Virus record (IMG/VR): IMGVR_UViG_3300042914_003231 | Location: 1 to 64,000 of that record | Length of the DNA stretch: 64,000 nt | Source of the DNA: a virus | Taxonomy: Duplodnaviria > Heunggongvirae > Uroviricota > Caudoviricetes | Reading direction: 5' to 3' (one strand) | Shown here: piece by piece, positions 800-26,287 of the stretch | How positions within the stretch are numbered: position 1 is the stretch's first letter | Layout of the letters: each line of letters begins with the position of its first letter | Position numbers and translations under genes: made by a program | Notes under the pieces: generated by a model | Seen by the model: the letters and a program-made list of their open reading frames with translations, nothing else | What the model was told of the DNA's origin: nothing | The model's database searches: none

Positions 800-1288
800 T
801 TATAGATCAGCAGGATTGTTAGATTTGCTAGAAATACCAATAGAAATCTCATCGACCTTCTCTTTATTCTTAGCATATGCTTCTTTAATCGCGTCACCAT
901 TATTATGAGCTACTGAAATATCTTCAGAAGACATGTTAGTGGTGTAGAAAGTTTTACGATAGATAGGCTGCCCATCTTGACAGCATACTATGTTAGTCTT
1001 TCCTGCGATCTTGTAGTCGCGTTCAGGATCACTAGCATTGAATGGTTCAAGACTTTCCTTGAATATAATCTTACCAGGAAGTTCCTGATCTTTTTTCCAA
1101 CCGAAAGATTTTAGATCTTCTACTGTTCCATGCACTAAAGCACTGATTGTTTTTCTACGAGCAAAGCCATTGTCGTCAACAACAATACGATTTTGCTCTA
1201 CTCTTATGTGAGCCCATTCTGGGTTGTTCTTTGATACGATGACAACATTTCCTGCATCATCAGATGTTACTTTTACTTTTGAGTCCAT
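800..1288 (-). CDS. hypothetical protein, 162 aa
   Basis: ORF track; flanked by terminators on both sides. No family recognised. Confidence 0.7.
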   Translation of the reverse strand: MDSKVKVTSDDAGNVVIVSKNNPEWAHIRVEQNRIVVDDNGFARRKTISALVHGTVEDLKSFGWKKDQELPGKIIFKESLEPFNASDPERDYKIAGKTNIVCCQDGQPIYRKTFYTTNMSSEDISVAHNNGDAIKEAYAKNKEKVDEISIGISSKSNNPADL

Positions 1289-1352
1289 GATTTTTTGATT
1301 TTTGATTGTTAAACATTGATTTGATTGTTGAGTTAAATATAGTACAAATGCA

Positions 1353-1377
1353 AAAACCGAGTAACTCTCTCGGTTTT
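1353..1377 (-). terminator. rho-independent terminator after 1406..1717
   Basis: 9-bp stem AAAACCGAG/CTCGGTTTT with a 7-nt loop. Confidence 0.65.
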
Positions 1378-1405
1378 ACATATATGCTGTCATGGCCACT
1401 AACAG

Positions 1406-1717
1406 CTAATCTTGTTCTTCTGATTCTTGTAATTCTTCACTCTCTTCAGTGATTCCTACATCATCTACTGTTATTATTGCAATAGTAGTAGTGACTTGCA
1501 TAGGAATTTCTTCACTCTCTTCCTGATAGTCAATACTCTTATCATGAGTAACTTCAGTTTTCTTTTTGGGCTTTCTGATGGCTGATTCTTGCCAATGAGA
1601 CTCTGGATATTCACCAACATTACCTGCCATAAGATCTTGAATATCTTGATCTGTCATATCAAGATATTGCTCTGTAGATATATGTACAATTTTTCCGTTA
1701 GGTAGTTGGTAAATCAT
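1406..1717 (-). CDS. acidic hypothetical protein, 103 aa
   Basis: ORF track; Glu/Asp-rich C-terminus (EESEELQESEEQD). Confidence 0.65.
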   Translation of the reverse strand: MIYQLPNGKIVHISTEQYLDMTDQDIQDLMAGNVGEYPESHWQESAIRKPKKKTEVTHDKSIDYQEESEEIPMQVTTTIAIITVDDVGITEESEELQESEEQD

Positions 1718-1721
1718 TTTA

Positions 1722-1910
1722 TTATCTCAATAGGCTAATAAGAACAATCCCTAATGCTACACAGGCAAAAAAGATATCTCTTCTTTTAATGTTCTGCTGC
1801 AGAGTGGCAATCTGTTTCTCTAAAGCTGCTACCTTCTCTTCATATTTGTCAAGGTATACATACTTTTTCTTTTTCGGCCAACCCATTCTTCTTTCTTCTT
1901 GTTCTTGCAT
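1722..1910 (-). CDS. small protein with a C-terminal transmembrane anchor, 62 aa
   Basis: ORF track; hydrophobic tail FFACVALGIVLISLL. Confidence 0.55.
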   Translation of the reverse strand: MQEQEERRMGWPKKKKYVYLDKYEEKVAALEKQIATLQQNIKRRDIFFACVALGIVLISLLR

Positions 1911-1940
1911 AGTTATTCTTTACACAAATATACACCTTTT

Positions 1941-2453
1941 TTAAAAAGGTTGATCATCTGCTGGGATAATAGGAGTTTGTTCACTTAAGGCATCCAAAAG
2001 ATCTAAAAAGGATTCTTCTTTATATGCTATGACATACTCTAATGCCTGATAAGTCACCTGTTTTATTGCTCCACTATCCATAAATGTGAAGCTAAGCACA
2101 TAAGGAGAACTATGATAAAGATTTACGTCCTCAATCTGACAAAGTAATAATCCTTCTTTATCATAAGAGGCTCCTTCTTTCCAGTGTGGCATTTTCTTAG
2201 TTTCCCGTTTATCTACCTTCCAAGATGGTAAATGACCAAACTTAACCCAGACCATATCACCCTTCTTATACTTGACTGTAGGATATATGCCTACCAAGGC
2301 TTTCATAAGCCCCGGTAAAGCATGATCTATAGTGTTTAAATAACCCACAATAACTTCTGCCAGCTTTTCATCACTAGGATCTTTTAGCCTAGTCATCAAA
2401 GCTTCTTTCACTTGATCAGGAGAGCATTCGATCATTATTTTCTTTTCACTCAT
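1941..2453 (-). CDS. hypothetical protein, 170 aa
   Basis: ORF track; 4-nt overlap with the next gene. Confidence 0.7.
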   Translation of the reverse strand: MSEKKIMIECSPDQVKEALMTRLKDPSDEKLAEVIVGYLNTIDHALPGLMKALVGIYPTVKYKKGDMVWVKFGHLPSWKVDKRETKKMPHWKEGASYDKEGLLLCQIEDVNLYHSSPYVLSFTFMDSGAIKQVTYQALEYVIAYKEESFLDLLDALSEQTPIIPADDQPF

Positions 2454-2797
2454 TGTGTTTCCATAAACCAGGTTATGTATTCGCGATAAAGACCGTTAGG
2501 TCTTCTGTTCTTAAACCTGTTGCTACTAATAAAGTGGAACCATACTCCAAATAGGAATATGCTACTAAATAGGACCGCATCTACCTTTAAGTTAAACCCA
2601 TTGTCAAGGGCACTTACATAAGGTACTATAGCCGGTCTTGGATTTAGTATTCCAAATATGATGAAAACCAAGGTCTCCATCACTAGTACAGGTATCAAGG
2701 ATTGCATTAGTATCCTGAATGCTATCCTCACAAAGTTTGTTGTCTTCATACTTATAATATAAATTATTGGTGATAACATCCAGTAACGAGTTATCAA
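2450..2797 (-). CDS. integral membrane protein, 115 aa
   Basis: ORF track; several hydrophobic segments. Confidence 0.6.
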   Translation of the reverse strand: MITRYWMLSPIIYIISMKTTNFVRIAFRILMQSLIPVLVMETLVFIIFGILNPRPAIVPYVSALDNGFNLKVDAVLFSSIFLFGVWFHFISSNRFKNRRPNGLYREYITWFMETQ

Positions 2798-2802
2798 CAG
2801 AC

Positions 2803-3027
2803 CTATGTTGATAATTTCTCATTCACTATAGTGATTTTTACCACATCATGGTGATAATGCAACCAGGCTTTTGCCTTCTTAATGTCTTCATCCGTGTGAT
2901 GACTTTCTTTAAATAGCTGGTAAGCACATCCTCCTGGACCTGCTAGATCTTCTCGGTAGAGCATATCATTGATATCTCCACCAGTTGCCCCATTGGGTCT
3001 TAGTTCTTTTAGAGTTAGAGTACTCAT
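2803..3027 (-). CDS. hypothetical protein, 74 aa
   Basis: ORF track. Confidence 0.6.
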   Translation of the reverse strand: MSTLTLKELRPNGATGGDINDMLYREDLAGPGGCAYQLFKESHHTDEDIKKAKAWLHYHHDVVKITIVNEKLST

Positions 3028-3188
3028 TTTGTAGAATTATTATCCACAAAATAAGTATCGGCTTCTTTTCCTACTACCAATTTAAACCTGAATGTACAGG
3101 TCAATATGGCTATTAGGATCAAGAAAGCACATGCCTTAGGATGGCTTTCTATTGCTGCTAGGAATGTTTCCATGCTGAATTCCTCCAT
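3024..3188 (-). CDS. small membrane protein, 54 aa (below the track cut-off)
   Basis: Manual translation: MEEFSMETFLAAIESHPKACAFLILIAILTCTFRFKLVVGKEADTYFVDNNSTK. Start and stop overlap the neighbouring genes (ATGA-type junctions), filling an otherwise empty gap. Confidence 0.4.
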   Translation of the reverse strand: MEEFSMETFLAAIESHPKACAFLILIAILTCTFRFKLVVGKEADTYFVDNNSTK

Positions 3189-3421
3189 TATGTTCTTTTT
3201 TTAATGCCGAACGCTATACCTATTTGTGAGGTATAGATGAATCGGTCTGATTGTTCTGTATCTATGTGTGCCCATGGTGGTACTATCTCCTTAACCAGAG
3301 TATCAAAGTCTGAGGGTTCCATAATAACCAACAGTCTAAGATTCTCTGGCATCGGGGATAGTCTATACACATGATGGGCAAACAATTCGATATCAGCTTG
3401 TGTTTTTAGGTTGTTTTCCAT
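3188..3421 (-). CDS. hypothetical protein, 77 aa
   Basis: ORF track. Confidence 0.6.
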   Translation of the reverse strand: MENNLKTQADIELFAHHVYRLSPMPENLRLLVIMEPSDFDTLVKEIVPPWAHIDTEQSDRFIYTSQIGIAFGIKKRT

Positions 3422-4755
3422 TAGAATGGTAATTCTGCAAAATCTGTTACTGGAGCCTTGTCTCCTAATGCACTTCTATAATCCAGTAAGTGCTGGGTGA
3501 TCATATCTCTCAATTCCTGTGGTGGATTGTGACCTTCTCTTCCATTACGGAAGCCTTGAAGTTGGTGCATGCGTAAGCTCTTACCTACTTCCAGAGTATA
3601 CCGGATATCCTTGTATACCATAGAGAATATACCACAGTCTCCATTGTTTATTCTGCTTGCATATGTTGCTACACAATGTTCTTGTTCAATACTTTCCTGA
3701 AGCAATCGCTTCTTGCTATCAACCTCTTCTACAGGTATAGCGAAGTCCTTGAACAGACCTTTGTAATTTTTGTGCATTTTCACATGCTTCACACCCTTTA
3801 AAATTCTTTCCCTGCTAAGCTTGCTGTGTTCATCTCGCATTCTCTTGTCTGAGGTGATCTTTAAGGAGAGCTTTTTGTCCAGCTCATAGTGGTCATTCAA
3901 CCAGTCTTCTACTAACCATGACAATTCATCCTTACCAAAGCACATCTCAGAGATGAGACAACCCAGACTATACTTACTTTTAGATCCTCCTGTAAGACCG
4001 TCTAAAAAAGATATGCGAGTCTCACGAGTCTCTTCAGCTTGTTTCTTTTCTTTTTCCAGGATAAACTGACAAACTCTGTTCATCTCTCCTGGATTCTGAA
4101 GTACTTTGCAAAGAACATCTAAACCCTTTATGCTTAACTTTTCAATAAGCAGTTTAGGTATCTTTACATTGTACATCTTCTCAATGACTTCAGCCTCATT
4201 TTTAGTGTTCATAAAGTTTCTGGTAAGAACTTTATCTAATACTGGCTGGTAGTCAATGTTAAGAACTGTTTTCAAGATCTGAGGACCATATGTATGAGGA
4301 ATGCGACCACCCTTCATTATTCTCGGGCCTCTGTATCTTCTGCTGGCTATGAACACATACAATTGTTTACTGTAACAAAAGATAGGATGGTTTTTCTTAA
4401 AAGGATAGAATCGGTTCTTTTTGTAAGCATAAGCATATCCATGCTCAAACTCGGCAATACTGATGCGATCTTTTTCTTTGTTGTAGAGTATAGAAAGAAC
4501 TGTTTTAACAGGCCTAGACCTATATCCATTGACTGCTTTCATGTATATCTCTGAGTCTGGTTCATGTTTCCAACCATGCTCTTTGAAATAGTTCTTACAG
4601 TACTCAATTGCTTTTAAGTTATCAGGAGAGGTCATGTCAAAGTAATAGGAGATGAATTGCTCATTCTCTATTACCTTAACCTCCCTTTCATCAGACTGTG
4701 GACGGTATAGATCCTTTACAGTCTCTATTATCCGGTTGAATATTTCTCTTTTCAT
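3421..4755 (-). CDS. PcfJ-like protein, 444 aa
   Basis: The C-terminal segment EQEHCVATYASRINNGDCGIFSMVYKDIRYTLEV...LQGFRNG resembles the PcfJ-family signature (HCV..Y...I..G). Assigned from memory, not searched. Confidence 0.55.
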   Translation of the reverse strand: MKREIFNRIIETVKDLYRPQSDEREVKVIENEQFISYYFDMTSPDNLKAIEYCKNYFKEHGWKHEPDSEIYMKAVNGYRSRPVKTVLSILYNKEKDRISIAEFEHGYAYAYKKNRFYPFKKNHPIFCYSKQLYVFIASRRYRGPRIMKGGRIPHTYGPQILKTVLNIDYQPVLDKVLTRNFMNTKNEAEVIEKMYNVKIPKLLIEKLSIKGLDVLCKVLQNPGEMNRVCQFILEKEKKQAEETRETRISFLDGLTGGSKSKYSLGCLISEMCFGKDELSWLVEDWLNDHYELDKKLSLKITSDKRMRDEHSKLSRERILKGVKHVKMHKNYKGLFKDFAIPVEEVDSKKRLLQESIEQEHCVATYASRINNGDCGIFSMVYKDIRYTLEVGKSLRMHQLQGFRNGREGHNPPQELRDMITQHLLDYRSALGDKAPVTDFAELPF

Positions 4756-5530: not shown

Positions 5531-6514
5531 TTATTTCATGTTGAACATTGCTGAAGTATTCCCACCCAACATGGTGGTAGGATACTTACCATCCCAGTTA
5601 GAAGCTCTGATGTAATCGATATACTGTTGGCTTAACTGTGCTTGCTTAAGCTTCATAGCCTTAGATTCTGCATCTGCTTCTACTAACATGGCTTGTGCTC
5701 TACCTGAAGCTGTAATAACGGCTTTGGCTGAATCACCTCTAGCTAGGGCAATCTTGGTTTTGGCTTGTGCATCTGCAACAATAGCCTTTTGTATTTCCCC
5801 TTGAGCTAGCTGTACAGCCTTAGTCTTTTCTTCGATCGCGTTTCTTAATGCTTCTGGTGGAACAATATTAGTTCTAAGCTGAGATATGACAAACCATTTA
5901 CTAGTCCTCTTATTACATTCTGTAACAATCTCTGCTTCAAACTGCTCTCTCTTATTAAAGATGTCATCTACAGACCATCTATTTGCCACATCATTTACTG
6001 ATCCCACAATAGCTGTCATTAACCATCCTTGTTCTATATCCTTCACTCCGAGTCTTAGAGCTTCAAACATATCTCCGACTGCATCTGCTTTTAAGGAATA
6101 GTTGAAGGTTGGTTTAATAACTGCTGAGAATCCTCCCTTTGTTATGACACCCTGATCACCATATTCAATATGTTGCTGGTAAGTAGGAAATTCATACAGT
6201 TTTTCTACCCATGTATTATAAGCTACCCAACCGGTTTTATACTGGTAGTCACTGACCCCGCGTTCATCACCTGATAGTTTAACTTTAATACCTACATGAC
6301 CAGCATCTACCCTCTCAAGGGTGTAAGGTTGAAATATGGCAACAAGCATACCTATAATGAGGATCAATAAAGGCTTAATTAGCCATGCCGGATTAGTTTT
6401 TTCAACCAAGTCATTGTACCGATCCTTAGTTTTGATTTTTGCATTTTCGCGGGTGCTAAATAGCATACCGATTACAAATAGGAGCACTGCTCCAAAAATT
6501 ATCCATGAAATCAT
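5531..6514 (-). CDS. SPFH/band-7 (prohibitin/HflC-like) membrane protein, 327 aa
   Basis: N-terminal TM segments, then VDAGHVGIKV... and an Ala/Gln/Lys-rich coiled tail (AIEEKTKAVQLAQGEIQKAIVADAQAKTKIALARG) typical of SPFH domains. Confidence 0.75.
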   Translation of the reverse strand: MISWIIFGAVLLFVIGMLFSTRENAKIKTKDRYNDLVEKTNPAWLIKPLLILIIGMLVAIFQPYTLERVDAGHVGIKVKLSGDERGVSDYQYKTGWVAYNTWVEKLYEFPTYQQHIEYGDQGVITKGGFSAVIKPTFNYSLKADAVGDMFEALRLGVKDIEQGWLMTAIVGSVNDVANRWSVDDIFNKREQFEAEIVTECNKRTSKWFVISQLRTNIVPPEALRNAIEEKTKAVQLAQGEIQKAIVADAQAKTKIALARGDSAKAVITASGRAQAMLVEADAESKAMKLKQAQLSQQYIDYIRASNWDGKYPTTMLGGNTSAMFNMK

Positions 6515-14903: not shown

Positions 14904-14935
14904 TTTGCATAATTAAAAAAACTATATTATATTTG
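14904..14935 (+). promoter_or_regulatory. promoter: TTTG (-33) N20 TATATTTG (-7)
   Basis: TTTG at 14904-14907 and TATATTTG at 14928-14935. Same spacing as the promoter at 16511-16542. Confidence 0.6.
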
Positions 14936-15079: not shown

Positions 15080-15151
15080 GGACTCATAGCTCAGTAGGTA
15101 GAGCGCAGGACTGAAAATCCTGCCGCACTGGTTCGATTCCAGTTGAGTCCA
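15080..15151 (+). tRNA. tRNA-Phe (GAA)
   Basis: Acceptor GGACTCA/TGAGTCC; D GCTC/GAGC; anticodon arm CAGGA-CTGAAAA-TCCTG; T arm ACTGG-TTCGATT-CCAGT. Confidence 0.92.
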
Positions 15152-15156
15152 CACAA

Positions 15157-15239
15157 GCCGACACTGTAGAGTGGGAGATCTACACCAGACTGTAAATCTG
15201 GAGTCTTAGACTTTGGGAGTTCGAATCTCTCTGGCGGCA
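15157..15239 (+). tRNA. tRNA-Tyr (GTA), long variable arm
   Basis: Acceptor GCCGACA/TGGCGGC (one mismatch); arm CCAGA-CTGTAAA-TCTGG; T arm GGGAG-TTCGAAT-CTCTC. Confidence 0.85.
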
Positions 15240-15244
15240 CAAAA

Positions 15245-15330
15245 GGAAGGTTGGCAGAGCCTGGCCGATTGCACCAGTCTTGAAAACTGGAGGTCCCTTG
15301 GATCCGTGAGTTCGAATCTCACACCTTCCT
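15245..15330 (+). tRNA. tRNA-Ser (TGA)
   Basis: Acceptor GGAAGGT/ACCTTCC; arm CCAGT-CTTGAAA-ACTGG; long variable arm; T arm GTGAG-TTCGAAT-CTCAC. Confidence 0.9.
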
Positions 15331-15390
15331 CAACATGCATAGAAAAATGCACTTTTCTATACATGTTTTTTGAAAGTGCATAAAAACTAT

Positions 15391-15431
15391 ACATCTCTAG
15401 CTCAACTGGCGGAGCAGCGGTCTCCAAAACC
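15391..15431 (+). pseudogene. truncated tRNA-Trp-like 5' portion (acceptor 5' strand to anticodon loop only)
   Basis: D arm GCTC-AACTGGCG-GAGC and loop CTCCAAA. Shares the 13-mer GGTCTCCAAAACC with the intact tRNA-Trp (15419-15431 versus 15834-15846). No T arm and no 3' acceptor complement. Confidence 0.6.
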
Positions 15432-15464
15432 ATAAAGCAGTTTGGATACTGAAGTAAAAACATG

Positions 15465-15472
15465 TATATTTG
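15465..15472 (+). promoter_or_regulatory. -7 box TATATTTG, 3 nt before ATG 15476
   Basis: Matches TAnnTTTG. Confidence 0.45.
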
Positions 15473-15475
15473 TAC

Positions 15476-15817
15476 ATGCCTTCAAAAAATAAAGAAATAC
15501 TAAAAAAGCATAGAGATGCTTGGTATAAAAAGAATAAAAAAAAACAGATTACTAACCAGCTTGAAAAAAGACAGGAATTAAAGAAATGGTTTCAGGAATA
15601 TAAGAGATCATTATCTTGTAAAGAGTGTGGATTTAGCTTTGAATTATTTCCAGAATGTTGTGATTTCCATCACAGAGATGGAGATACAAAGAAAGATGTA
15701 GTAAGCAGATTGCTACCAATGGGAATAAAAGCACTAAAGAAAGAGATTGAAAAATGTGATCCTCTTTGTGCTAATTGTCATAGAAAGCTCCATGCAAAAT
15801 TAGAATATACAGGTTAG
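15476..15817 (+). CDS. HNH homing endonuclease (free-standing, inside the tRNA array)
   Basis: CKECG...CCDFHHRDGDTKKD...CDPLCANCHRKLH is an HNH/zinc-finger motif. The stop codon lies inside the tRNA-Trp 5' end. Confidence 0.8.
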   Translation: MPSKNKEILKKHRDAWYKKNKKKQITNQLEKRQELKKWFQEYKRSLSCKECGFSFELFPECCDFHHRDGDTKKDVVSRLLPMGIKALKKEIEKCDPLCANCHRKLHAKLEYTG

Positions 15818-15880
15818 CTTATTGGAAGCACCAGGTCTCCAAAACCTCGGATGGAAGGAGTTCGATTCTCTTAACCTGTG
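15809..15880 (+). tRNA. tRNA-Trp (CCA)
   Basis: Acceptor ACAGGTT/AACCTGT; D GCTT/AAGC; loop CTCCAAA; T arm AGGAG-TTCGATT-CTCTT. Confidence 0.85.
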
Positions 15881-15885
15881 CACAA

Positions 15886-15957
15886 GGTACCGTGGGTGAG
15901 GGGTTTAGCCTCAGGTCTGCAAAACCTGCTACGTCTGTTCGAATCAGACCGGTACCT
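15886..15957 (+). tRNA. tRNA-Cys (GCA)
   Basis: Acceptor GGTACCG/CGGTACC; arm CAGGT-CTGCAAA-ACCTG; T arm GTCTG-TTCGAAT-CAGAC. Confidence 0.92.
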
Positions 15958-15958
15958 C

Positions 15959-16174
15959 ATGAAAGAGATAGATGAAGAGTTCAACTTACTTCAGTTGTAC
16001 ATCTATGATTGCATCAACCGGATGTGTTTGAATGCATACATAGATAAGACTAAGTGTTCTCATCACCCTTTGTATACTTTTGAAGAATACAAAACGGCAA
16101 TATGGGATCCTTGGACTGGAGAGACTGTAGCAAGTAGAACAAGATGGGCTTTAAATATTAAGCCTTTATTTTAG
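15959..16174 (+). CDS. hypothetical protein, 71 aa, flush between tRNA-Cys and tRNA-Ser
   Basis: The ATG lies 2 nt after the tRNA-Cys discriminator. The stop TAG (16172-16174) overlaps the tRNA-Ser start (16173). The track ORF 15878.. was trimmed to the first ATG outside the tRNA. Confidence 0.5.
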   Translation: MKEIDEEFNLLQLYIYDCINRMCLNAYIDKTKCSHHPLYTFEEYKTAIWDPWTGETVASRTRWALNIKPLF

Positions 16175-16257
16175 AGAAGTGGCTGAGTGGCTTAAGGCAC
16201 CGCACTGCTAACGCGGAGGATGTAACAGTTCCACCGGTTCGAATCCGGTCTTCTCTG
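16173..16257 (+). tRNA. tRNA-Ser (GCT)
   Basis: Acceptor AGAGAAG/CTTCTCT; loop CTGCTAA; long variable arm; T arm ACCGG-TTCGAAT-CCGGT. Confidence 0.88.
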
Positions 16258-16262
16258 CAAAT

Positions 16263-16343
16263 GCCCATATGGTGGAATGGTAGACGCGCTGGTCTTAGGA
16301 ACCAGTACCGTAAGGTATGTAGGTTCGAGTCCTACTATGGGTA
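16263..16343 (+). tRNA. tRNA-Leu (TAG)
   Basis: Acceptor GCCCATA/TATGGGT; arm CTGGT-CTTAGGA-ACCAG; long variable arm; T arm GTAGG-TTCGAGT-CCTAC. Confidence 0.9.
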
Positions 16344-16348
16344 CATAT

Positions 16349-16431
16349 ACTCCTGTGGTGTAATTGGTAGCCGCGCTAGGCTTAAGACTCAGTGGACTTA
16401 GTCCGTGCCGGTTCGAGTCCGGCCAGGAGTA
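16349..16431 (+). tRNA. tRNA-Leu (TAA)
   Basis: Acceptor ACTCCTG/CAGGAGT; loop CTTAAGA (weak anticodon stem); variable stem GGACT/AGTCC; T arm GCCGG-TTCGAGT-CCGGC. Confidence 0.8.
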
Positions 16432-16474
16432 CTTTGCTCACCTGATTAATAAAGTGACCAAAAATTATTACACT

Positions 16475-16520
16475 GTCTACCAATCAGTTAGACCTTCTGA
16501 AGAAAATATTTTTGGTAGAC
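16475..16520 (+). other. 9-bp stem-loop at the end of tRNA block 1
   Basis: GTCTACCAA (16475-16483) pairs with TTGGTAGAC (16512-16520). The 3' arm overlaps the -33 TTTG of the next promoter. Confidence 0.5.
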
Positions 16521-16542
16521 TCAAACAAACCTATTATATTTG
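16511..16542 (+). promoter_or_regulatory. promoter: TTTG (-33) N20 TATATTTG (-7)
   Basis: TTTG at 16511-16514 and TATATTTG at 16535-16542. Confidence 0.6.
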
Positions 16543-16550
16543 TCTTGCAA

Positions 16551-16652
16551 ATGAAACGCATACAACATATCCAGATGGCCAATACAGGCAGAAATACGGT
16601 GGAGATTAAAGATCCGACCGTGTCCATGGGTGTTGCATGTAGTTTTAGATAA
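16551..16652 (+). CDS. leader ORF 2, 33 codons: MKRIQHIQMANTGRNTVEIKDPTVSMGVACSFR
   Basis: ATG lies 8 nt after the -7 box. Residues 2-24 use only the 14 amino acids served by the 16 downstream tRNAs, and all 14 occur. A terminator follows 28 nt after the stop. Confidence 0.5.
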   Translation: MKRIQHIQMANTGRNTVEIKDPTVSMGVACSFR

Positions 16653-16680
16653 GACATTTTTAGTTAGCTAAACCGCATTA

Positions 16681-16710
16681 AACCCCTGGACAAGTTCTAG
16701 GGGTTTTTTG
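16681..16710 (+). terminator. intrinsic terminator immediately before tRNA-Pro
   Basis: Stem (AA)CCCCTGG/CTAGGGG(TT) with a 7-nt loop and T6. Confidence 0.8.
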
Positions 16711-16718
16711 TTTTACCC

Positions 16719-16791
16719 CGGGATGTAGATCAGTTGGTAGATTGCGTGCTTTGGGAGCATGAGGTCGCAGGTTCGAGCCCTGTCATCCCGA
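16719..16791 (+). tRNA. tRNA-Pro (TGG)
   Basis: Acceptor CGGGATG/CATCCCG; arm CGTGC-TTTGGGA-GCATG; T arm GCAGG-TTCGAGC-CCTGT. Confidence 0.9.
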
Positions 16792-16847
16792 CTAGCAGAA
16801 GTGGTACTCCAGTGCCCGTACTGAAAACCAAACAAAACTGGAGACAT

Positions 16848-16920
16848 GGGGTTCAAGCACAAGCGGACGTGCATTAGCTTTGCAAGCTAGAGGATCTCGG
16901 TTCGAGGCCGAGGAGCTCCA
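16848..16920 (+). tRNA. tRNA-Ala (TGC)
   Basis: Acceptor GGGGTTC/GAGCTCC with a G3:U70 pair; D GCAC/GTGC; arm TTAGC-TTTGCAA-GCTAG; T arm CTCGG-TTCGAGG-CCGAG. Confidence 0.88.
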
Positions 16921-16921
16921 C

Positions 16922-17083
16922 ATGAATGAAGAACTATATAATTGGCTGGAGAAGATGTTTATGTTCTCCAATATCCCTAAGTACAGGAAGTACTTTAAGG
17001 AATGGGTGGACAACATAACTGAAGATCAGATCACCGGTTTTCAGAGAATGATGGGAGCCAACTATAAGATTAAGCAGGAATAG
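16922..17083 (+). CDS. hypothetical protein, 53 aa, flush between tRNA-Ala and tRNA-Gly
   Basis: The ATG lies 2 nt after the tRNA-Ala discriminator. The stop TAG (17081-17083) lies inside tRNA-Gly, which starts at 17074. Confidence 0.5.
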   Translation: MNEELYNWLEKMFMFSNIPKYRKYFKEWVDNITEDQITGFQRMMGANYKIKQE

Positions 17084-17148
17084 CTCATCCTTGGTAGAGC
17101 TCCAGTCTTCCAAACTGGAGGTGGCGAGTTCGAGCCTCGCTTCCTGCT
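17074..17148 (+). tRNA. tRNA-Gly (TCC)
   Basis: Acceptor GCAGGAA/TTCCTGC; arm CCAGT-CTTCCAA-ACTGG; T arm GCGAG-TTCGAGC-CTCGC. Confidence 0.92.
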
Positions 17149-17331
17149 CACAACTGCAGTGCCCATGTACAGTGGGGGTACAATCACTGCAGGTAGAAGA
17201 GTGCTAAGAAATCCGGTGTTGGGTTAGCTCTGGACACTAAGGTAAGGAGTGGGTAAGGACCACAGTCCCCGTCTAACAGGGACAAAGTTTTGCAAAAGCC
17301 TTCCCTGGGATGGAGCACTCTTCATGATATT
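17149..17331 (+). ncRNA. structured non-tRNA spacer RNA (unknown family)
   Basis: 8-bp hairpin CTGCAGTG/CACTGCAG (17154-17192). 10-bp long-range helix GAAGAGTGCT (17196-17205) with AGCACTCTTC (17314-17323). Inner hairpin GTCCC...GGGAC. GC-enriched; no cloverleaf. Confidence 0.4.
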
Positions 17332-17407
17332 GGTCTGTTAGGGGAGTCCGGCCGTCCCTACCTCACTGTCTATGAGGGGATCACGGGTTCGAATCCCGTA
17401 CAGACCG
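17332..17407 (+). tRNA. tRNA-Asp (GTC)
   Basis: Acceptor GGTCTGT/ACAGACC; arm CCTCA-CTGTCTA-TGAGG; T arm ACGGG-TTCGAAT-CCCGT. Position 37 is an unusual T. Confidence 0.78.
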
Positions 17408-17518
17408 CTGGGCGGTAGTCTAATGAGCAGGGTTAGTAGCGTGCTGACTAACTAGTCTTAGGACGATCATCTTATGGGATGATAGATATCAGTAACCATT
17501 CTGATCTGCCCCACCAAT
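17408..17518 (+). ncRNA. second structured non-tRNA spacer (unknown)
   Basis: Hairpins ATCATC-ttatgg-GATGAT and ATCAG-taaccatt-CTGAT; ends ...CTGCCCCACCA; repeated TAGTCT(A/T)A. Confidence 0.3.
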
Positions 17519-17590
17519 TGCCCCTTAGCTCAGCGGTAGAGCAAAACCCTGTTAAGGTTGAGGTCCTAGGTTCAATCCCTAGAGGGGCAG
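17519..17590 (+). tRNA. tRNA-Asn (GTT)
   Basis: Acceptor TGCCCCT/AGGGGCA; loop CTGTTAA; T arm CTAGG-TTCAATC-CCTAG. Confidence 0.9.
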
Positions 17591-17595
17591 CAAAT

Positions 17596-17670
17596 AGACG
17601 AGTAGCTCAGCCTGGTTAGAGCGCCCGCCTGATACGCGGAGGGTCACAGGTTCAAATCCTGTCTTGTCTA
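17596..17670 (+). tRNA. tRNA-Ile (GAT)
   Basis: Acceptor AGACGAG/CTTGTCT; loop CTGATAC; T arm ACAGG-TTCAAAT-CCTGT. Confidence 0.88.
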
Positions 17671-17727
17671 CTTTGGGACCGTTTGGTAGTGACATAGTCT
17701 TGAACTAGATCATAGAAACTATCACAT

Positions 17728-17800
17728 AGGAGTATAGCTCAGTTGGGAGAGCATCCGGTTTACATCCGGACGGTCCAAGGTTCGAGTCCTTGTATTCCTA
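17728..17800 (+). tRNA. tRNA-Val (TAC)
   Basis: Acceptor AGGAGTA/TATTCCT; arm TCCGG-TTTACAT-CCGGA; T arm CAAGG-TTCGAGT-CCTTG. Confidence 0.9.
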
Positions 17801-17884
17801 CAAACTTTAAAGATTTAAACTTATAATGTTTACACTATTAAAATATAAGGTTATAAAGAGAAGGATAAAACCTTAACTCATTAT

Positions 17885-17956
17885 TCCCTCATAGCTTAGT
17901 GGTAAAGCAGTATACTTTTAATATACGGAGCGGCAGTTCGATTCTGCCTGGGGGAA
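17885..17956 (+). tRNA. tRNA-Lys (TTT)
   Basis: Acceptor TCCCTCA/TGGGGGA; arm GTATA-CTTTTAA-TATAC; T arm GGCAG-TTCGATT-CTGCC. Confidence 0.9.
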
Positions 17957-17962
17957 CTTTAA

Positions 17963-18034
17963 ACCCCCGTAGCTCAATGGAAGAGTAAGAGACTTCTAAG
18001 CTCAAGGTTACCAGTTCGAGTCTGGTCGGGGGTT
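17963..18034 (+). tRNA. tRNA-Arg (TCT)
   Basis: Acceptor ACCCCCG/CGGGGGT; loop CTTCTAA (short GAG/CTC stem); T arm ACCAG-TTCGAGT-CTGGT. Confidence 0.82.
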
Positions 18035-18040
18035 CTGAAT

Positions 18041-18114
18041 AGGCCCTTAGCTCAGTTGGTTAGAGCAGTACTCTTATAAGGTAAAGGTCACCGGTTCAAA
18101 CCCGGTAGGGCCTA
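18041..18114 (+). tRNA. tRNA-Ile (TAT), reads ATA
   Basis: Acceptor AGGCCCT/AGGGCCT; loop CTTATAA; T arm ACCGG-TTCAAAC-CCGGT. Confidence 0.85.
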
Positions 18115-18124
18115 CATAATATTT

Positions 18125-18199
18125 AGCGGGGTGACTGGAGTTGGTTCCAGCACAGCCTCATAAACTGTACAGACGCGGGTTCGAGTCCCGCCCCCGCTA
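18125..18199 (+). tRNA. tRNA-Met (CAT), elongator-like
   Basis: Acceptor AGCGGGG/CCCCGCT; loop CTCATAA; T arm GCGGG-TTCGAGT-CCCGC. No 3xG:C initiator signature in the anticodon stem. Confidence 0.85.
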
Positions 18200-18265
18200 C
18201 AATGAGTGCTAATGACACCTGATAAAGGAGGGGATATATTACCAGGTCCCCCGACACTCAGTAAC

Positions 18266-18337
18266 GCTCCCATCATCTAGGGGTCAGGATATCAGGTTTT
18301 CGACCTGAGCACCAGGGTTCGAATCCCTGTGGGAGTA
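18266..18337 (+). tRNA. tRNA-Glu (TTC)
   Basis: Acceptor GCTCCCA/TGGGAGT; arm TCAGG-TTTTCGA-CCTGA; T arm CAGGG-TTCGAAT-CCCTG. Confidence 0.9.
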
Positions 18338-18342
18338 CTTAA

Positions 18343-18415
18343 GCTTGAGTAGCACAATTGGTAGTGCACCTCCCTTGTAAGGAGAAGGTTGTCAGTTCGA
18401 GTCTGACCTCAAGCT
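18343..18415 (+). tRNA. tRNA-Thr (TGT)
   Basis: Acceptor GCTTGAG/CTCAAGC; D GCAC/GTGC; loop CTTGTAA; T arm GTCAG-TTCGAGT-CTGAC. Confidence 0.9.
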
Positions 18416-18417
18416 CT

Positions 18418-18491
18418 GTGTCTGTAGAGGAATTGGTAGACTCCCCGGAATGTGGATCCGGTGCTTGTGGGTTCAAGTCCCATCAGACACC
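18418..18491 (+). tRNA. tRNA-His (GTG)
   Basis: Acceptor GTGTCTG/CAGACAC; arm CCGGA-ATGTGGA-TCCGG; T arm GTGGG-TTCAAGT-CCCAT. The only tRNA followed by an encoded CCA. Base -1 is T, not G. Confidence 0.88.
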
Positions 18492-18497
18492 CCATTA

Positions 18498-18571
18498 GTT
18501 CTCATAGCTCAATTGGATAGAGTCCTTGACTACGGATCAAGAGGTTGAAGGTTCGACTCCTTCTGAGAACA
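18498..18571 (+). tRNA. tRNA-Arg (ACG)
   Basis: Acceptor GTTCTCA/TGAGAAC; arm CTTGA-CTACGGA-TCAAG; T arm GAAGG-TTCGACT-CCTTC. Confidence 0.92.
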
Positions 18572-18576
18572 CATAA

Positions 18577-18647
18577 TGCCCTTTCGTCTAACGGCAGGAC
18601 CTGTGGTTTTGGGCCACATGATCGAGGTTCGAATCCTTGAGGGGCAA
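18577..18647 (+). tRNA. tRNA-Gln (TTG)
   Basis: Acceptor TGCCCTT/AGGGGCA; arm TGTGG-TTTTGGG-CCACA; T arm CGAGG-TTCGAAT-CCTTG. Followed by a T-run. Confidence 0.9.
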
Positions 18648-18680
18648 CTAGTTTTTTATTGTTTGCACATCCAAAGTTTT

Positions 18681-18692
18681 TTTGTATATTAG
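18681..18692 (+). promoter_or_regulatory. candidate late-promoter box TTTGTATATTAG
   Basis: An identical 13-mer TTTTGTATATTAG recurs at 44670-44682, upstream of another structural gene. Confidence 0.4.
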
Positions 18693-18716: not shown

Positions 18717-19607
18717 ATGGATGTAGTAAACTTTGATGCTCTCAAAGCACAGGGCAAAATTATAAAAATATCAGATGTGAATCCTGATGAGGATTACTTC
18801 ATCATTGGTCATTATGATCCGCGAAGAAGAGAATTTAAAGCTACTGATTACCCTATCTATGCTATAAAAGCACGTGATGTTTTAAATTCTTCAAATGCTT
18901 TTAATAATCCTTTTGATTTCTATTTAGATGGTAATGCTCCTGCAGGAGGGGATGGCTCAGCAAGTAATCCTTTTAATTTATTTTCTCAAGCCGTTGCCTA
19001 TATTAATACACTTCCTTCAGCAACATATACTCTATATGTATTGCCGTACAGTTATACAGAATCATCCCCGGTTATTAATCTACCAAACAATTCTGCTCTA
19101 AATATAATAGGAGTAGTAGCTAATTCTTGTAGCTTTAATTTTAATGTACAATTTACCGCAATACCAGCTTCCTCATATGCTGTATGGTATGAAAATATTG
19201 CTTTTAGTAATTTTGAACTAGATCTTTCTTTAGCATCTTTTGCTTCTATATCCTTTACAGGTTCTAAGGTAGATCTTATAAGAACAGATTCTAATCCTTC
19301 TACTATAGTGACATTACAAGGTGCAATGTTTGCCTCTACCCTTTCCGGTAGAGTTTTATGGTTAAATGGTGTAATGTTTGGTGATATTAATGTTCAAACA
19401 AATGGTGAGTTGTTTTGTAATACGGTATTACAACTACAAGGACAATTTAAGTTAACAGGATCTGCTAAGTTAAAAACTTTAAGTATGCCAAACCCTACAC
19501 CTAATGGTGTAGATGGTATTCCTGTAGGTTTGAATATACCGGTTTGGAGAACTGATGCTGCAAGTGATGAAACTTTTACAGGAACTCTTACAAAAATAAT
19601 ATATTAA
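18717..19607 (+). CDS. tail fibre or receptor-binding protein, 296 aa
   Basis: The N-terminal ~55 aa are paralogous to 19610..20287 (ALKAQGKIIKISD...DYFIIGHY versus LIAQGKILKASE...DYLIIGKY). First gene after the tRNA array. Confidence 0.55.
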   Translation: MDVVNFDALKAQGKIIKISDVNPDEDYFIIGHYDPRRREFKATDYPIYAIKARDVLNSSNAFNNPFDFYLDGNAPAGGDGSASNPFNLFSQAVAYINTLPSATYTLYVLPYSYTESSPVINLPNNSALNIIGVVANSCSFNFNVQFTAIPASSYAVWYENIAFSNFELDLSLASFASISFTGSKVDLIRTDSNPSTIVTLQGAMFASTLSGRVLWLNGVMFGDINVQTNGELFCNTVLQLQGQFKLTGSAKLKTLSMPNPTPNGVDGIPVGLNIPVWRTDAASDETFTGTLTKIIY

Positions 19608-25388: not shown

Positions 25389-25796
25389 ATGAATACATCA
25401 ATATTAGGACAAAAATCAAATATGGAAATACTTAAATTTTATTTATTTACTTTTTTTTACTGGTTATTAATATACTTTCAACCTACTCTCGAGTTTGTAT
25501 TATTAGTAGGATTTTTTGTAGTTATGGATACTATTACTGGAATAGCTGGTGCAATAAAAACTGAACAAGCTATTACATCAAAAAAATTTAGAGCCATATT
25601 CCCTAAATTTATAGTATATGGAGCAGCCGTACTTACAGCTCATGTTTTACAAAAGCAATTTTTTCCTGATTTTCCGGCTATGAAAATAGTAGCCGGATTT
25701 GTTGCTTATAGTGAACTCATGTCTATAGATGAGAACATTCAAAAGATTACCGGTTTCAGTGTATTTAAATTCTTTATCAAAAAACTTAAAAAATAA
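25389..25796 (+). CDS. holin (phage_holin_4-like), 135 aa
   Basis: Three to four TM segments; motif VMDTITGIAGAIK...ITSKKF; directly precedes the endolysin. Confidence 0.65.
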   Translation: MNTSILGQKSNMEILKFYLFTFFYWLLIYFQPTLEFVLLVGFFVVMDTITGIAGAIKTEQAITSKKFRAIFPKFIVYGAAVLTAHVLQKQFFPDFPAMKIVAGFVAYSELMSIDENIQKITGFSVFKFFIKKLKK

Positions 25797-26287
25797 TGGA
25801 TAAAATAACTTTAGATAGAATAGCTTTATTACATCCTCAACTGAGAGATGAAGCTTTAGAAATGTACAAAGAGATATGTGACAGATTAGGTAAAAATGTA
25901 ATCTGCAGATTTTCTCATACTTTAAGAACTTTTAAAGAGCAAAATGATCTTTATGCTCAAGGAAGAAGTAAACCTGGAAAAATTGTAACCTTTGCTAAAG
26001 GAGGTCAAAGTTACCATAACTATGGTCTTGCTATTGATATTGTATTTCTTATAGATAAAGATGGCAATGGATCTTATGAAACAGCTTCTTGGGATATATC
26101 AACAGATTGGGATAAAGATGGTACTACTGATTGGAAAGAAGTAGATTTTGTTTTCAACATGTATGGATGGAAAGGTTTGTATAAAGATGGTAAAAGATGG
26201 GACTTCCCGCATTTTCAAAAAGACTTTGGTCTAAATATTGTTAAATTACAAAAACTACCTTTAGTAGGTGGTTATCCTAAACTATAA
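25796..26287 (+). CDS. endolysin, peptidase M15 (L-alanyl-D-glutamate peptidase/VanY-like), 163 aa
   Basis: RTFKEQNDLYAQGR...GQSYHNYGLAIDIV...WDFPHFQ, i.e. the SxHxxGxAxD plus distal His zinc-ligand pattern. Confidence 0.85.
   Translation: MDKITLDRIALLHPQLRDEALEMYKEICDRLGKNVICRFSHTLRTFKEQNDLYAQGRSKPGKIVTFAKGGQSYHNYGLAIDIVFLIDKDGNGSYETASWDISTDWDKDGTTDWKEVDFVFNMYGWKGLYKDGKRWDFPHFQKDFGLNIVKLQKLPLVGGYPKL

Follow-up and report, generated by a model that had tools for sequence, protein, structure and literature searches.

A tRNA gene array with one anticodon per codon box, kept in order among diverged phage lineages

We report an array of 24 tRNA genes, spanning positions 15080-18648 on the plus strand, in a phage-derived stretch of 64,000 nucleotides (nt) that comprises positions 1 to 64,000 of the IMG/VR virus record IMGVR_UViG_3300042914_003231 (hereafter the window). 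The array provides one anticodon for each codon box or half-box of the standard code, and none is duplicated. At least nine diverged lineages have an array of the same order, and in them the tRNA structures are under purifying selection; the array is missing from the corresponding site of other relatives. We consider it probable that the array is a functional RNA operon, encoding elongator-type decoders in a set that is minimal and free of redundancy yet complete, and that would replace the host tRNA pool. It also contains structured RNAs at fixed positions between the tRNAs, two of which we present as candidate new RNA classes.

ARAGORN called the 24 genes and none elsewhere in the 64 kb, and its intron mode found no extra tRNA in the window. 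A scan with the Rfam covariance model RF00005 returned the same 24, all at or above the gathering score (30.8-74.3 bits; E-values 2e-14 to 0.02), only the tRNA-Trp gene at 15809 being marginal. These E-values, the clustering of matches (24 in 3.6 kb versus 0 in the other 60 kb) and the orthologous arrays that keep their cloverleafs at about 70-79% identity together exclude a chance origin. A preliminary description of the stretch, based on hand-folding, had claimed 24 cloverleafs for 20 amino acids, in which Ser, Leu, Arg and Ile each had two isoacceptors and 13 of the anticodons began with T. Both programs agree with it on every gene and anticodon; no hand-called cloverleaf was rejected or reassigned, and the ARAGORN calls bear out the coverage of all 20 amino acids, the isoacceptors and the T-starting anticodons. 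The tRNA genes occupy 1,808 of 3,568 nt, and half of the 3.6-kb interval is thus non-tRNA. Only the tRNA-His gene encodes CCA, and all 24 have C at position 74; this shared C74 may reflect a 3'-end processing or CCA-completion rule of the phage-host system. The genes, with RF00005 scores, are as follows.

15080-15152 (+): tRNA-Phe (GAA), 74.3 bits
15157-15240 (+): tRNA-Tyr (GTA), long variable arm, 41.2 bits; 76 of 84 positions identical to the copy at locus L039
15245-15331 (+): tRNA-Ser (TGA), 52 bits
15809-15881 (+): tRNA-Trp (CCA), replacement copy, divergent, short D arm, G73, 30.8 bits (marginal)
15886-15958 (+): tRNA-Cys (GCA), 51.9 bits
16173-16258 (+): tRNA-Ser (GCT), 52.3 bits
16263-16344 (+): tRNA-Leu (TAG), 56.2 bits
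16349-16432 (+): tRNA-Leu (TAA), 43.4 bits
16719-16792 (+): tRNA-Pro (TGG), 63.2 bits
16848-16921 (+): tRNA-Ala (TGC), G3:U70 pair read from the sequence, 46.6 bits
17074-17149 (+): tRNA-Gly (TCC), 59.8 bits
17332-17408 (+): tRNA-Asp (GTC), non-canonical loop CTGTCTA, 49.7 bits
17519-17591 (+): tRNA-Asn (GTT), most conserved gene of the array, 64.2 bits
17596-17671 (+): tRNA-Ile (GAT), 64.3 bits
17728-17801 (+): tRNA-Val (TAC), 67.3 bits
17885-17957 (+): tRNA-Lys (TTT), 66.5 bits
17963-18035 (+): tRNA-Arg (TCT), 58.2 bits
18041-18115 (+): tRNA-Ile (TAT), slot 18, 67.1 bits
18125-18200 (+): tRNA-Met (CAT), slot 19, 43.2 bits
18266-18338 (+): tRNA-Glu (TTC), 56.8 bits
18343-18416 (+): tRNA-Thr (TGT), 67.9 bits
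18418-18494 (+): tRNA-His (GTG), without encoded G-1, with CCA, 52.1 bits
18498-18572 (+): tRNA-Arg (ACG), 64.8 bits
18577-18648 (+): tRNA-Gln (TTG), 50.7 bits

The 24 anticodons resolve into eight family boxes, 13 two-codon sets, Ile GAT, Ile TAT and Met. U34 tRNAs serve seven of the four-codon boxes and ACG serves the CGN box; G34 tRNAs read seven NNY pairs and U34 tRNAs five NNR pairs, and Trp, Ile-GAT, Ile-TAT and one Met complete the set. Relative to the theoretical minimum of 25, the sole gap is a second tRNA-Met, since the window holds one CAT tRNA and not a separate initiator and elongator. We counted 14,796 codons from the 40 window open reading frames (ORFs) of at least 150 amino acids (aa). 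The array would read 76.7% of them if U34 is limited to A and G, 97.2% if family-box U34 also reads U, and 99.9% under four-way U34 wobble, which covers 60 of the 61 sense codons and misses only CGG, a codon used 14 times.

At third codon positions A+T amounts to 74% (43% T, 31% A), in keeping with the earlier suggestion that the anticodons are suited to A/U-ending codons. The finer part of that suggestion fares less well: NNT rather than NNA heads the codon counts in six of the seven U34 family boxes (for example GCT 490 versus GCA 280, and GGT 505 versus GGA 341), so that U34 here signifies breadth rather than a match to preferred codons. The dedicated ATA reader proposed for the array does have the anticodon TAT, and ATA accounts for 32% of Ile codons; among Arg codons the share of AGA is 60%, and Leu is most often encoded by TTA. 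The set had also been called a minimal self-sufficient decoding kit. Minimal it is, with one tRNA per box and 97.2-99.9% coverage; self-sufficient it is not, given CCA in one gene of 24, and synthetases, modification enzymes and RNase P/Z must be supplied from elsewhere. No tRNA-processing, tRNA-modifying or tRNA-metabolism enzymes were detected among the window genes.

The genetic code of the window is the standard one; TAA accounts for 35 of the 40 stop codons in the ORFs counted above, and ARAGORN called no suppressor tRNA. Stop-codon recoding is ruled out by these two observations and by the intact long ORFs, and the array is therefore not a recoding device. A tmRNA was likewise considered and rejected: ARAGORN found none, and a weak Rfam match (25.8 bits, gathering score 47) merely overlaps tRNA-Met.

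Relatives of the array were recovered by an anchor on the upstream gene, by a follow-up pattern, and by a 24-nt block of tRNA-Asn that was invariant in the three arrays first compared and whose exact matches retrieved further arrays; compared loci carry labels from L039 to L067. The same array is found on two IMG/VR contigs and 12 metagenome contigs, one of which is a twin of an IMG/VR contig. Its order is Phe, Tyr, Ser, Trp, Cys, Ser, Leu, Leu, Pro, Ala, Gly, Asp, Asn, Ile, Val, Lys, Arg, slot 18, Met, Glu, Thr, His, Arg and Gln, and 24 tRNAs were likewise called in the arrays of L056 and L066. For most pairs of lineages the concatenated tRNAs are 69-79% identical, the nearest relative of the window being at 77-79%. 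That high covariance-model scores and compensatory stem changes are retained across lineages at this identity demonstrates purifying selection on tRNA function. The spacing is also conserved: long spacers lie between Leu and Pro (221-286 nt, in every array that spans it), Gly and Asp (161-182 nt, all arrays), Val and Lys (76-99 nt, all arrays) and Met and Glu (53-72 nt, absent only in L065), and most of the remaining spacers are 0-9 nt.

The invariant tRNA-Asn 24-mer occurs in none of 185,579 bacterial and archaeal species genomes, which argues against recent capture of the tRNAs; as a search for a host or donor, neither it nor a motif pattern for the 128-nt RNA described below gave a match there. 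At the same time, the array is accessory. Eight IMG/VR relatives (TerL 64-78% identical) have no tRNA within the available 3-7 kb upstream of a conserved 463-aa gene, and L048 keeps both flanking genes with 3.4 kb of small ORFs (1112-4506) in the array's place. Among these ORFs is a GroES-like co-chaperonin (4092-4358), and the end of a GroES-like gene also lies just upstream of the array in L052 (1-205). Loci anchored on TerL or on the 463-aa protein held no tRNAs, an anchor on the downstream ORF (18717-19607) gave no related loci, and spacer-specific patterns in IMG/VR returned only the L039 contig again. The fraction of G+C at third codon positions (GC3) of the TerL gene is 0.27-0.28 in relatives without the array at this locus versus 0.31-0.34 in carriers; with array-less relatives equally or more AT-rich by this measure, AT-richness alone does not predict carriage.

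Several further tRNA-like features were seen at the compared loci. In the Ser-GCT slot, the gaps between Cys and Leu(TAG) of L052 (762-850), L057 and L062 hold a non-canonical cloverleaf, uncalled by ARAGORN, with anticodon loop CTGCTAA, a D stem of 5-6 bp with a loop of 3-4 nt, a T-side loop ATCAGGG and covarying stems; the Ser-TGA of L057 is similarly odd. About 10 kb upstream of its array, L039 has two tRNA-like genes on the minus strand (246-367 and 613-729), with insertions of 48 nt and 30 nt in the anticodon region, that score 48.6 and 47 bits with Rfam and are called Leu-taa and Trp-cca in ARAGORN intron mode; they have no counterpart in the window. Three loci, L055 (Ga0172372_10218530), L064 (Ga0194134_10015203) and L067 (Ga0194129_10015918), were retrieved solely through the 24-mer in one tRNA (tRNA-Phe in L055 and L064) and represent unrelated, extremely dense arrays on both strands; L064 and L067 have 34-45 tRNAs in 5-7 kb, and L055 has 11 in 1.4 kb. 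Many of their anticodons have A34 (AGC, AAC, AGT, AGG, AGA, AAG), a eukaryote-style set.

Three oddities had been noted in the window tRNAs, namely T at position 37 of tRNA-Asp, a tRNA-His without encoded G-1 and a single tRNA-Met without initiator signature, and all three are present. The tRNA-Asp loop reads C-T-GTC-T-A, hence U37 and A38. This loop, CTGTCTA, is found in 7 of 14 arrays, the other seven having the canonical CTGTCAC, and over about 24 slots in the 14 arrays it is the only anticodon loop with a pyrimidine at position 37. It sits on two tRNA-Asp backbones, one with a GGGGAG...GGCCGTCCC D arm (window and L066) and one with a GTTCAGGGGTTAGAAT D arm (the L056 group); L065 has the GTTCAGGGGTTAGAAT-type backbone with the canonical loop. 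Because its carriers are not monophyletic on the array tree, the variant appears to be recurrent or exchanged, and maintained.

Bacterial genomes normally encode G-1 of tRNA-His, which serves HisRS as the main identity element. Two forms of the gene occur among the arrays. In L052, L056/L061, L062 and L066, G-1 pairs with C73 and U1 is mismatched with C72. The window, L039 and L054/L057, three lineages, instead have U-1 and a G1-C72 pair at the same spacing; in the window T at -1 is accompanied by C73 and the encoded CCA. The divergent L059 also has G-1:C73, which suggests that the state without G-1 is the derived one. Bacteria and archaea have Thg1-like proteins that are able to add G-1 opposite C73 (PMC3061083, PMC3245924).

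The CAT-family slots were placed by direct alignment to E. coli metZ, metT and Ile genes, since for slot 19 BLAST against E. coli was too insensitive. Slot 18 has anticodon TAT in the window, L056, L061 and L063, and CAT in eight other loci. Over all copies, identity ranges from 68 to 82% to CAT-type tRNA-Ile and from 68 to 78% to elongator Met. The copies of the window, L039, L052 and L062 are 76-82% identical to the former versus 68-71% to the latter (76% versus 71% for the window copy), and that of L054 is closer to Met. The closest annotated E. coli tRNA is correspondingly tRNA-Ile for L052 and the window and tRNA-Met for L054, so the lineages are contradictory. The most economical reading would be a switch from a lysidine-dependent CAU tRNA to a UAU reader of AUA.

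At slot 19, the window has A1-U72 and no G:C run in its anticodon stem. Most relatives have U1-A72 and L039 has G1.U72, weak pairs in place of the C1xA72 mismatch. The window stem is ACAGC/ACTGT with a C31.A39 mismatch, beside an odd D arm; L054 keeps GGC/GCC. All arrays have the acceptor xGCGGGG/CCCCGCx with A73, that is, the initiator-type pairs G2:C71, C3:G70 and G4:C69. Identity to the initiator metZ is 77% for the L054 copy and 75% for that of L039, versus 55-64% to the elongator metT; the window copy is ambiguous (65% and 66%). Judged by these alignments and the shared acceptor, the Met slot is initiator-derived by descent and degenerate in the window, and what the array is without is probably an elongator Met rather than an initiator. 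Asp T37, the absence of His G-1 and the TAT anticodon all recur in other arrays and so represent character states of lineages, not one-off defects.

The non-tRNA half of the array contains four structured elements.

16793-16847 (+): Pro-to-Ala spacer hairpin CTCCAGT...ACTGGAG
17196-17323 (+): 128-nt RNA with six helices and a probable loop-loop pseudoknot, preceded by a variable hairpin at 17153-17192
17409-17518 (+): 110-nt tRNA-shaped element with an acceptor-like helix TGGGCGG/CTGCCCC followed by A-CCA, compared with L056
18203-18260 (+): 58-nt H-type pseudoknot RNA with P1 TGAGTG/CACTCA, P2 CCTG/CAGG and P3 AGGGGA/TCCCC

The 128-nt RNA lies in the Gly-to-Asp gap of every array. Plain MAFFT alignments misplace helix strands at indels, and we therefore used hand-segmented, N-padded alignments for the spacer RNAs. 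In such an alignment of nine distinct sequences, 99% of cells are paired, 24 of 36 pairs have changed on both sides, and covariation is 0.64 versus 0.27 in shuffled alignments, with 0 of 500 shuffles reaching 0.64. Hand alignments are fitted to the structure and their counts lean towards it; this is partly offset by an unfitted MAFFT alignment, in which RNAalifold finds four helices with 14 of 24 pairs compensatory, by a slide control, in which 38-48% of cells pair when partners are shifted, and by a truncated copy in L065, outside the seed, that is found by our covariance model R1. Each array yields a single R1 match, and the rest of the 749 kb searched yields none. The conserved loops GTTAG and CTAAC are complementary and change together in L059 and L066. 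The 58-nt pseudoknot, located between tRNA-Met and tRNA-Glu in eight distinct lineages and absent from L065, behaves similarly: 95% of cells are paired, 12 of 16 pairs have changed on both sides, and covariation is 0.70 versus 0.22 shuffled. Its conserved single-stranded segments are AATGAAC, ATAAAG and TATATTAC. Permissive E-value scans of the window region, L052, L056 and L066 gave no Rfam 15 match for either RNA, and we put both forward as candidate new RNA classes. A faint CR-I/CR-V resemblance of the P5 strands had raised the idea that the 128-nt RNA is a reduced RNase P RNA; this was rejected on finding no model match at E<=5 and no P4-type long-range architecture.

The Pro-to-Ala hairpin is kept in five other lineages, in L062 in a compensatory version (TTCCGGC/GCCGGAA). 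Two types of element occupy the Asp-to-Asn slot. That of the window and the L056 group, called by neither ARAGORN nor Rfam in the window, is predicted to fold as a four-way junction with a 39-nt insert in the D stem and an atypical T-side loop. In L039 (12408-12486), L054 (82 nt) and L062 (87 nt) the slot instead holds a circularly permuted tRNA-like element, with a canonical T arm first, the D arm last, and closure by the would-be anticodon stem; when the natural ends are joined, ARAGORN at a relaxed threshold finds a cloverleaf in all three. We know of no earlier report of circularly permuted tRNA-like RNAs in bacterial viruses.

The other features in and around the array are protein genes, a tRNA remnant and putative transcription signals.

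14904-14933 (+): promoter-like TTTGCA-N18-TATATT(TG) upstream of the array, with a TATTATATTTG motif conserved in L039 and L052
15047-15079 (+): GC-rich hairpin and T8 run abutting tRNA-Phe, with equivalents in L039 and L052
15391-15432 (+): truncated ancestral tRNA-Trp, 5' two-thirds (acceptor 5' strand, D arm, anticodon arm)
15470-15817 (+): HNH homing-endonuclease gene, 115 aa (phrog_3106 E=1e-21, phrog_2255 E=3e-21)
15959-16174 (+): 71-aa ORF filling the Cys-to-Ser gap, in the window only, no family match
16512-16716 (+): Leu-to-Pro unit, with promoter-like sequence (16512-16540), ORF (16551-16652) and terminator-like hairpin plus T-run (16680-16716)
16922-17083 (+): 53-aa protein gene between tRNA-Ala and tRNA-Gly, stop inside tRNA-Gly, no family match
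17802-17884 (+): AT-rich Val-to-Lys spacer with conserved core TTTAAACTTrTAATGTTTACACTA...

Only the window, among the arrays, has a 477-nt insertion between Ser and Trp. It contains the tRNA-Trp remnant, which is nearly identical to positions 1-42 of the Trp genes of L039, L052 and L062 and then diverges, without a T arm or acceptor 3' strand, and the HNH gene, which has its own TATATTTG promoter-like motif at about 15458 and a stop codon inside the replacement tRNA-Trp. The replacement is complete as a cloverleaf, and its D arm resembles that of the L066 Trp. It looks as if a homing-endonuclease cassette broke the resident Trp gene and brought its own. The 71-aa ORF fills a gap that measures 4-8 nt in arrays with a called Ser-GCT beside Cys. 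The 53-aa ORF is shared by the window, L052 and L058/L061, where synonymous codon differences (13-14 of 54) outnumber non-synonymous ones (6-10), which argues that it is a real gene. Each of these two ORFs begins immediately behind the upstream tRNA and ends with a TAG that lies within, or overlaps, the very start of the downstream one. The layout of the Leu-to-Pro unit is the same in every array spanning that spacer, and its small ORF (MKRIQHIQ... in the window) starts MK(R/H/Q)(I/V/N).... The hairpin abutting tRNA-Phe probably terminates the upstream gene or else acts as an attenuator; the Val-to-Lys spacer, from its conserved AT-rich core, is possibly an internal promoter.

A TTTG(C/G)A-N16-18-TATATT(TG) motif recurs in the window before the array (14904-14933), before the HNH gene (15443-15470), inside the array (16512-16540) and before the first gene of the virion block (18662-18690). 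Such TTTG...TAnnTTTG-like motifs resemble the Bacteroidota promoter consensus (TTTG at -33, TAnnTTTG at -7), and this hints at a host in that phylum. The phage nature of the DNA is evident from genes for TerL (phrog_6681, 5e-58), a 922-aa portal (phrog_6547, 1.5e-91) and a 541-aa major head protein (phrog_11589). Over 83-88% of its length, TerL shares 23-25% identity with proteins of crAss-like, Flavobacterium, Cellulophaga and Azobacteroides phages, and the genome can be described as distantly crAss-like in its terminase, portal and capsid genes and as a possible member of the Crassvirales. Related TerL proteins (59-79% identical) occur on 38 IMG/VR viral contigs; among GenBank phages, megablast gave no close DNA relative, only single-tRNA matches at about 90%. 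The contigs of relatives suggest a genome of roughly 120-130 kb, and the window is AT-rich (36.7% G+C). The array marks the point of divergence between a leftward and a rightward block of genes; it heads the rightward block, which contains the virion genes, and is on the same strand as these. The window also encodes a PcfJ-like protein (3421-4755, minus strand), an SPFH/Band 7 protein (5531-6514, minus strand) and an M15/VanY-type peptidase, probably an endolysin (25796-26287, plus strand).

How such a set would be expressed, processed and charged, and why it would be selected, we infer from gene arrangement. Transcription would yield a few polycistronic precursors from Bacteroidota-type promoters. 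Spacers of typically only about 4 nt suggest that RNase P and 3' processing enzymes would cut these precursors, and the same processing would free the embedded structured RNAs as discrete molecules. CCA addition and charging would follow, by host or phage enzymes, the charging most likely by those of the host. The resulting pool would be able to translate almost all phage codons late in infection, regardless of how much host tRNA was left and how intact it was, the host pool being replaced and not topped up for a few rare codons; the pressure could be host shut-off caused by the phage or a tRNA-targeting defence of the host. Several points weigh against this. Four-way reading by U34 depends on tRNA modification state, which is invisible in DNA. 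The array-less relatives are seen as partial contigs and may have tRNAs elsewhere. Slots have decayed in relatives, with several tRNAs lost in L059 and L065 and a degenerate Ala in L039, so completeness is not strictly maintained. A tRNA-His without the main HisRS identity element and degenerate Met and Trp (43 and 31 bits) may work poorly, and with 23 of 24 genes lacking CCA the function of some members may be poor.

The classical explanation for phage tRNAs would be codon-usage compensation, in which an AT-rich phage supplies readers for ATA, AGA and NNA codons that its host decodes poorly and completeness is incidental. The 74% A+T at third positions, U34 in 13 of 24 anticodons, and tRNAs that are the Watson-Crick cognates of ATA, AGA and TTA all fit it. 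Yet codon bias cannot explain the inclusion of the single-codon Trp and Met tRNAs; the G34 tRNAs of NNY pairs have the rarer NNC as their Watson-Crick cognates; NNT is preferred in most U34 family boxes; there is one gene per box, with no redundancy or dosage skew; and relatives with lower GC3 do without the array at this locus. We consider this explanation unlikely. Coverage of each box exactly once (Trp and Met included), the breadth of U34 and the failure of AT-richness to predict carriage favor replacement of the host pool instead.

A more specific form of pool replacement would have the array out-supply or resist host tRNA nucleases, such as PrrC, VapC, colicin E5/D-like enzymes, AriB of PARIS, the retron PtuAB, Septu and Schlafen-type effectors, with the Asp U37/A38 loop, the G-1-less His and, quite speculatively, the tRNA-like elements serving as resistant substitutes or decoys. 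The unique pyrimidine-37 loop, on two backbones and in a non-monophyletic set of arrays, suggests selection or exchange. As a lead only, tRNA-Asp is, with the tRNAs for Tyr, His and Asn, a target of colicin E5, and anticodon-loop mutations have been reported in phage copies of three of the four targeted tRNAs (PMC10264068). Other reports describe rescue of infection from tRNA-cleaving systems by phage tRNAs (PMC11555353, PMC12409363) and link a homing endonuclease in a tRNA cluster to amplification of the tRNA locus against Septu (PMC13096335); an HNH gene is present here, and the array is accessory and patchily distributed. Against this, only 1 of the 24 anticodon loops is non-canonical, and U37 could equally be neutral or deleterious drift, tolerated through the strong C36 pair. 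We treat such an anti-defence role as possible but on balance improbable. That the array is instead a decaying or selfish island, captured once, kept by homing endonucleases and recombination and rich in pseudo-tRNAs, is very unlikely. It would account for the tRNA truncated by the HNH gene, the degenerate or lost slots of L039 (Ala), L059 and L065, the low-scoring Trp and Met of the window and the tRNA-derived relics in the Asp-to-Asn slot; but order and cloverleafs persist at 69-79% identity with pervasive compensatory changes and high scores in every lineage, an intact Trp took the place of the truncated one, and the absence of the Asn 24-mer from bacterial and archaeal genomes argues against recent capture.

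A broader, three-part reading is doubtful, namely that the array is an integrated, lineage-conserved RNA operon for both translation and counter-defence. Its decoders would have been re-engineered to cut host dependencies and sensitivities: the change from CAU to UAU would free AUA reading from TilS, Asp U37/A38 would alter a nuclease or modification target, and His would have a reshaped -1/+1 end. At least two new compact RNA classes (128 nt and 58 nt), released by processing of the flanking tRNAs, would act as ligand- or protein-binding effectors or as decoys, and the tRNA-shaped and circularly permuted tRNA-like RNAs would form the third component.

Phage tRNA clusters, complete ones included, are already known (T4, T5, XacN1, crAss-like phages), and the headline of a complete set is ordinary. 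What is unusual is the economy of one tRNA per box, an order kept over deep divergence, the paired variants at identity sites, and the fixed-position RNAs without a described family, so that the interest lies mostly in these by-products rather than in the original claim of completeness. The array nevertheless offers a clean natural non-redundant decoder set on a virus, conserved in order yet dispensable in sister lineages, and the family is a good system in which to separate codon compensation from replacement of the host tRNA pool. It also provides natural tRNA-identity experiments with sister states: the CAU or UAU reader of AUA, the pyrimidine at position 37 of Asp, and His with or without G-1.

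Mollicutes, Mycoplasma among them, and organelles use one U34 tRNA per family box, and the UAU tRNA-Ile of Mycoplasma mobile reads AUA. The window resembles them in having one tRNA per box, with U34 in 7 of 8 family boxes, and its sublineage resembles Mycoplasma mobile in reading AUA with UAU, not with a CAU tRNA that would need lysidine. The difference is that those are cellular or organellar genomes with co-evolved synthetases and modification loss, whereas the window set needs foreign enzymes. Circularly permuted tRNA genes occur in Cyanidioschyzon merolae, other algae and Thermofilum pendens, and there are also two-piece tmRNA genes. The Asp-to-Asn slot of L039, L054 and L062 is alike in placing the 3' half before the 5' half, with a cloverleaf on joining the ends, and differs in that the break lies in the anticodon loop and the acceptor end is loop-closed; the window's own element is non-permuted.

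Among phages, T5 reportedly has endonuclease genes and small ORFs between its tRNA genes, an account that is said to go back to Akulenko and colleagues in 2004. By that account it is similar to the window in tRNA number and in interspersed genes of both kinds, but it belongs to the Demerecviridae on Enterobacteria and has no sequence similarity to the window. Xanthomonas phage XacN1, a jumbo phage, has 56 tRNAs for all 20 amino acids (PMC5852040). The window shares that range of amino acids; the 56 genes of XacN1 lie in 66-kb terminal repeats of a 385-kb genome, in contrast to 24 non-redundant genes in 3.6 kb here. Zeta crAss-like phages have 6-26 tRNAs, often with suppressor tRNAs and tRNA-metabolism enzymes, and as in the window the tRNA block adjoins a major gene block (PMC12386605). 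Their virion-module proteins are related to those of the window (TerL about 24%), which differs in lacking a suppressor tRNA, recoding or detected tRNA-metabolism enzymes, and in having environmental relatives.

The T4 cluster comprises 8 tRNAs, mostly with U34 anticodons, together with the stable species 1 and 2 RNAs (rnaC/rnaD). Like the array it is tightly packed on one strand of an AT-rich phage, with a homing endonuclease inside and non-tRNA RNAs among the tRNAs. Its endonuclease gene, segB, is free-standing (PMC2330249). The T4 cluster is processed from polycistronic precursors, as is predicted for the array; it differs in having 8 tRNAs, not a full set, and a GIY-YIG rather than an HNH endonuclease. 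With their fixed positions and covariation, the 128-nt fold and the 58-nt pseudoknot of the array extend the 50-year-old puzzle of T4 species 1 and 2 to another phage lineage.

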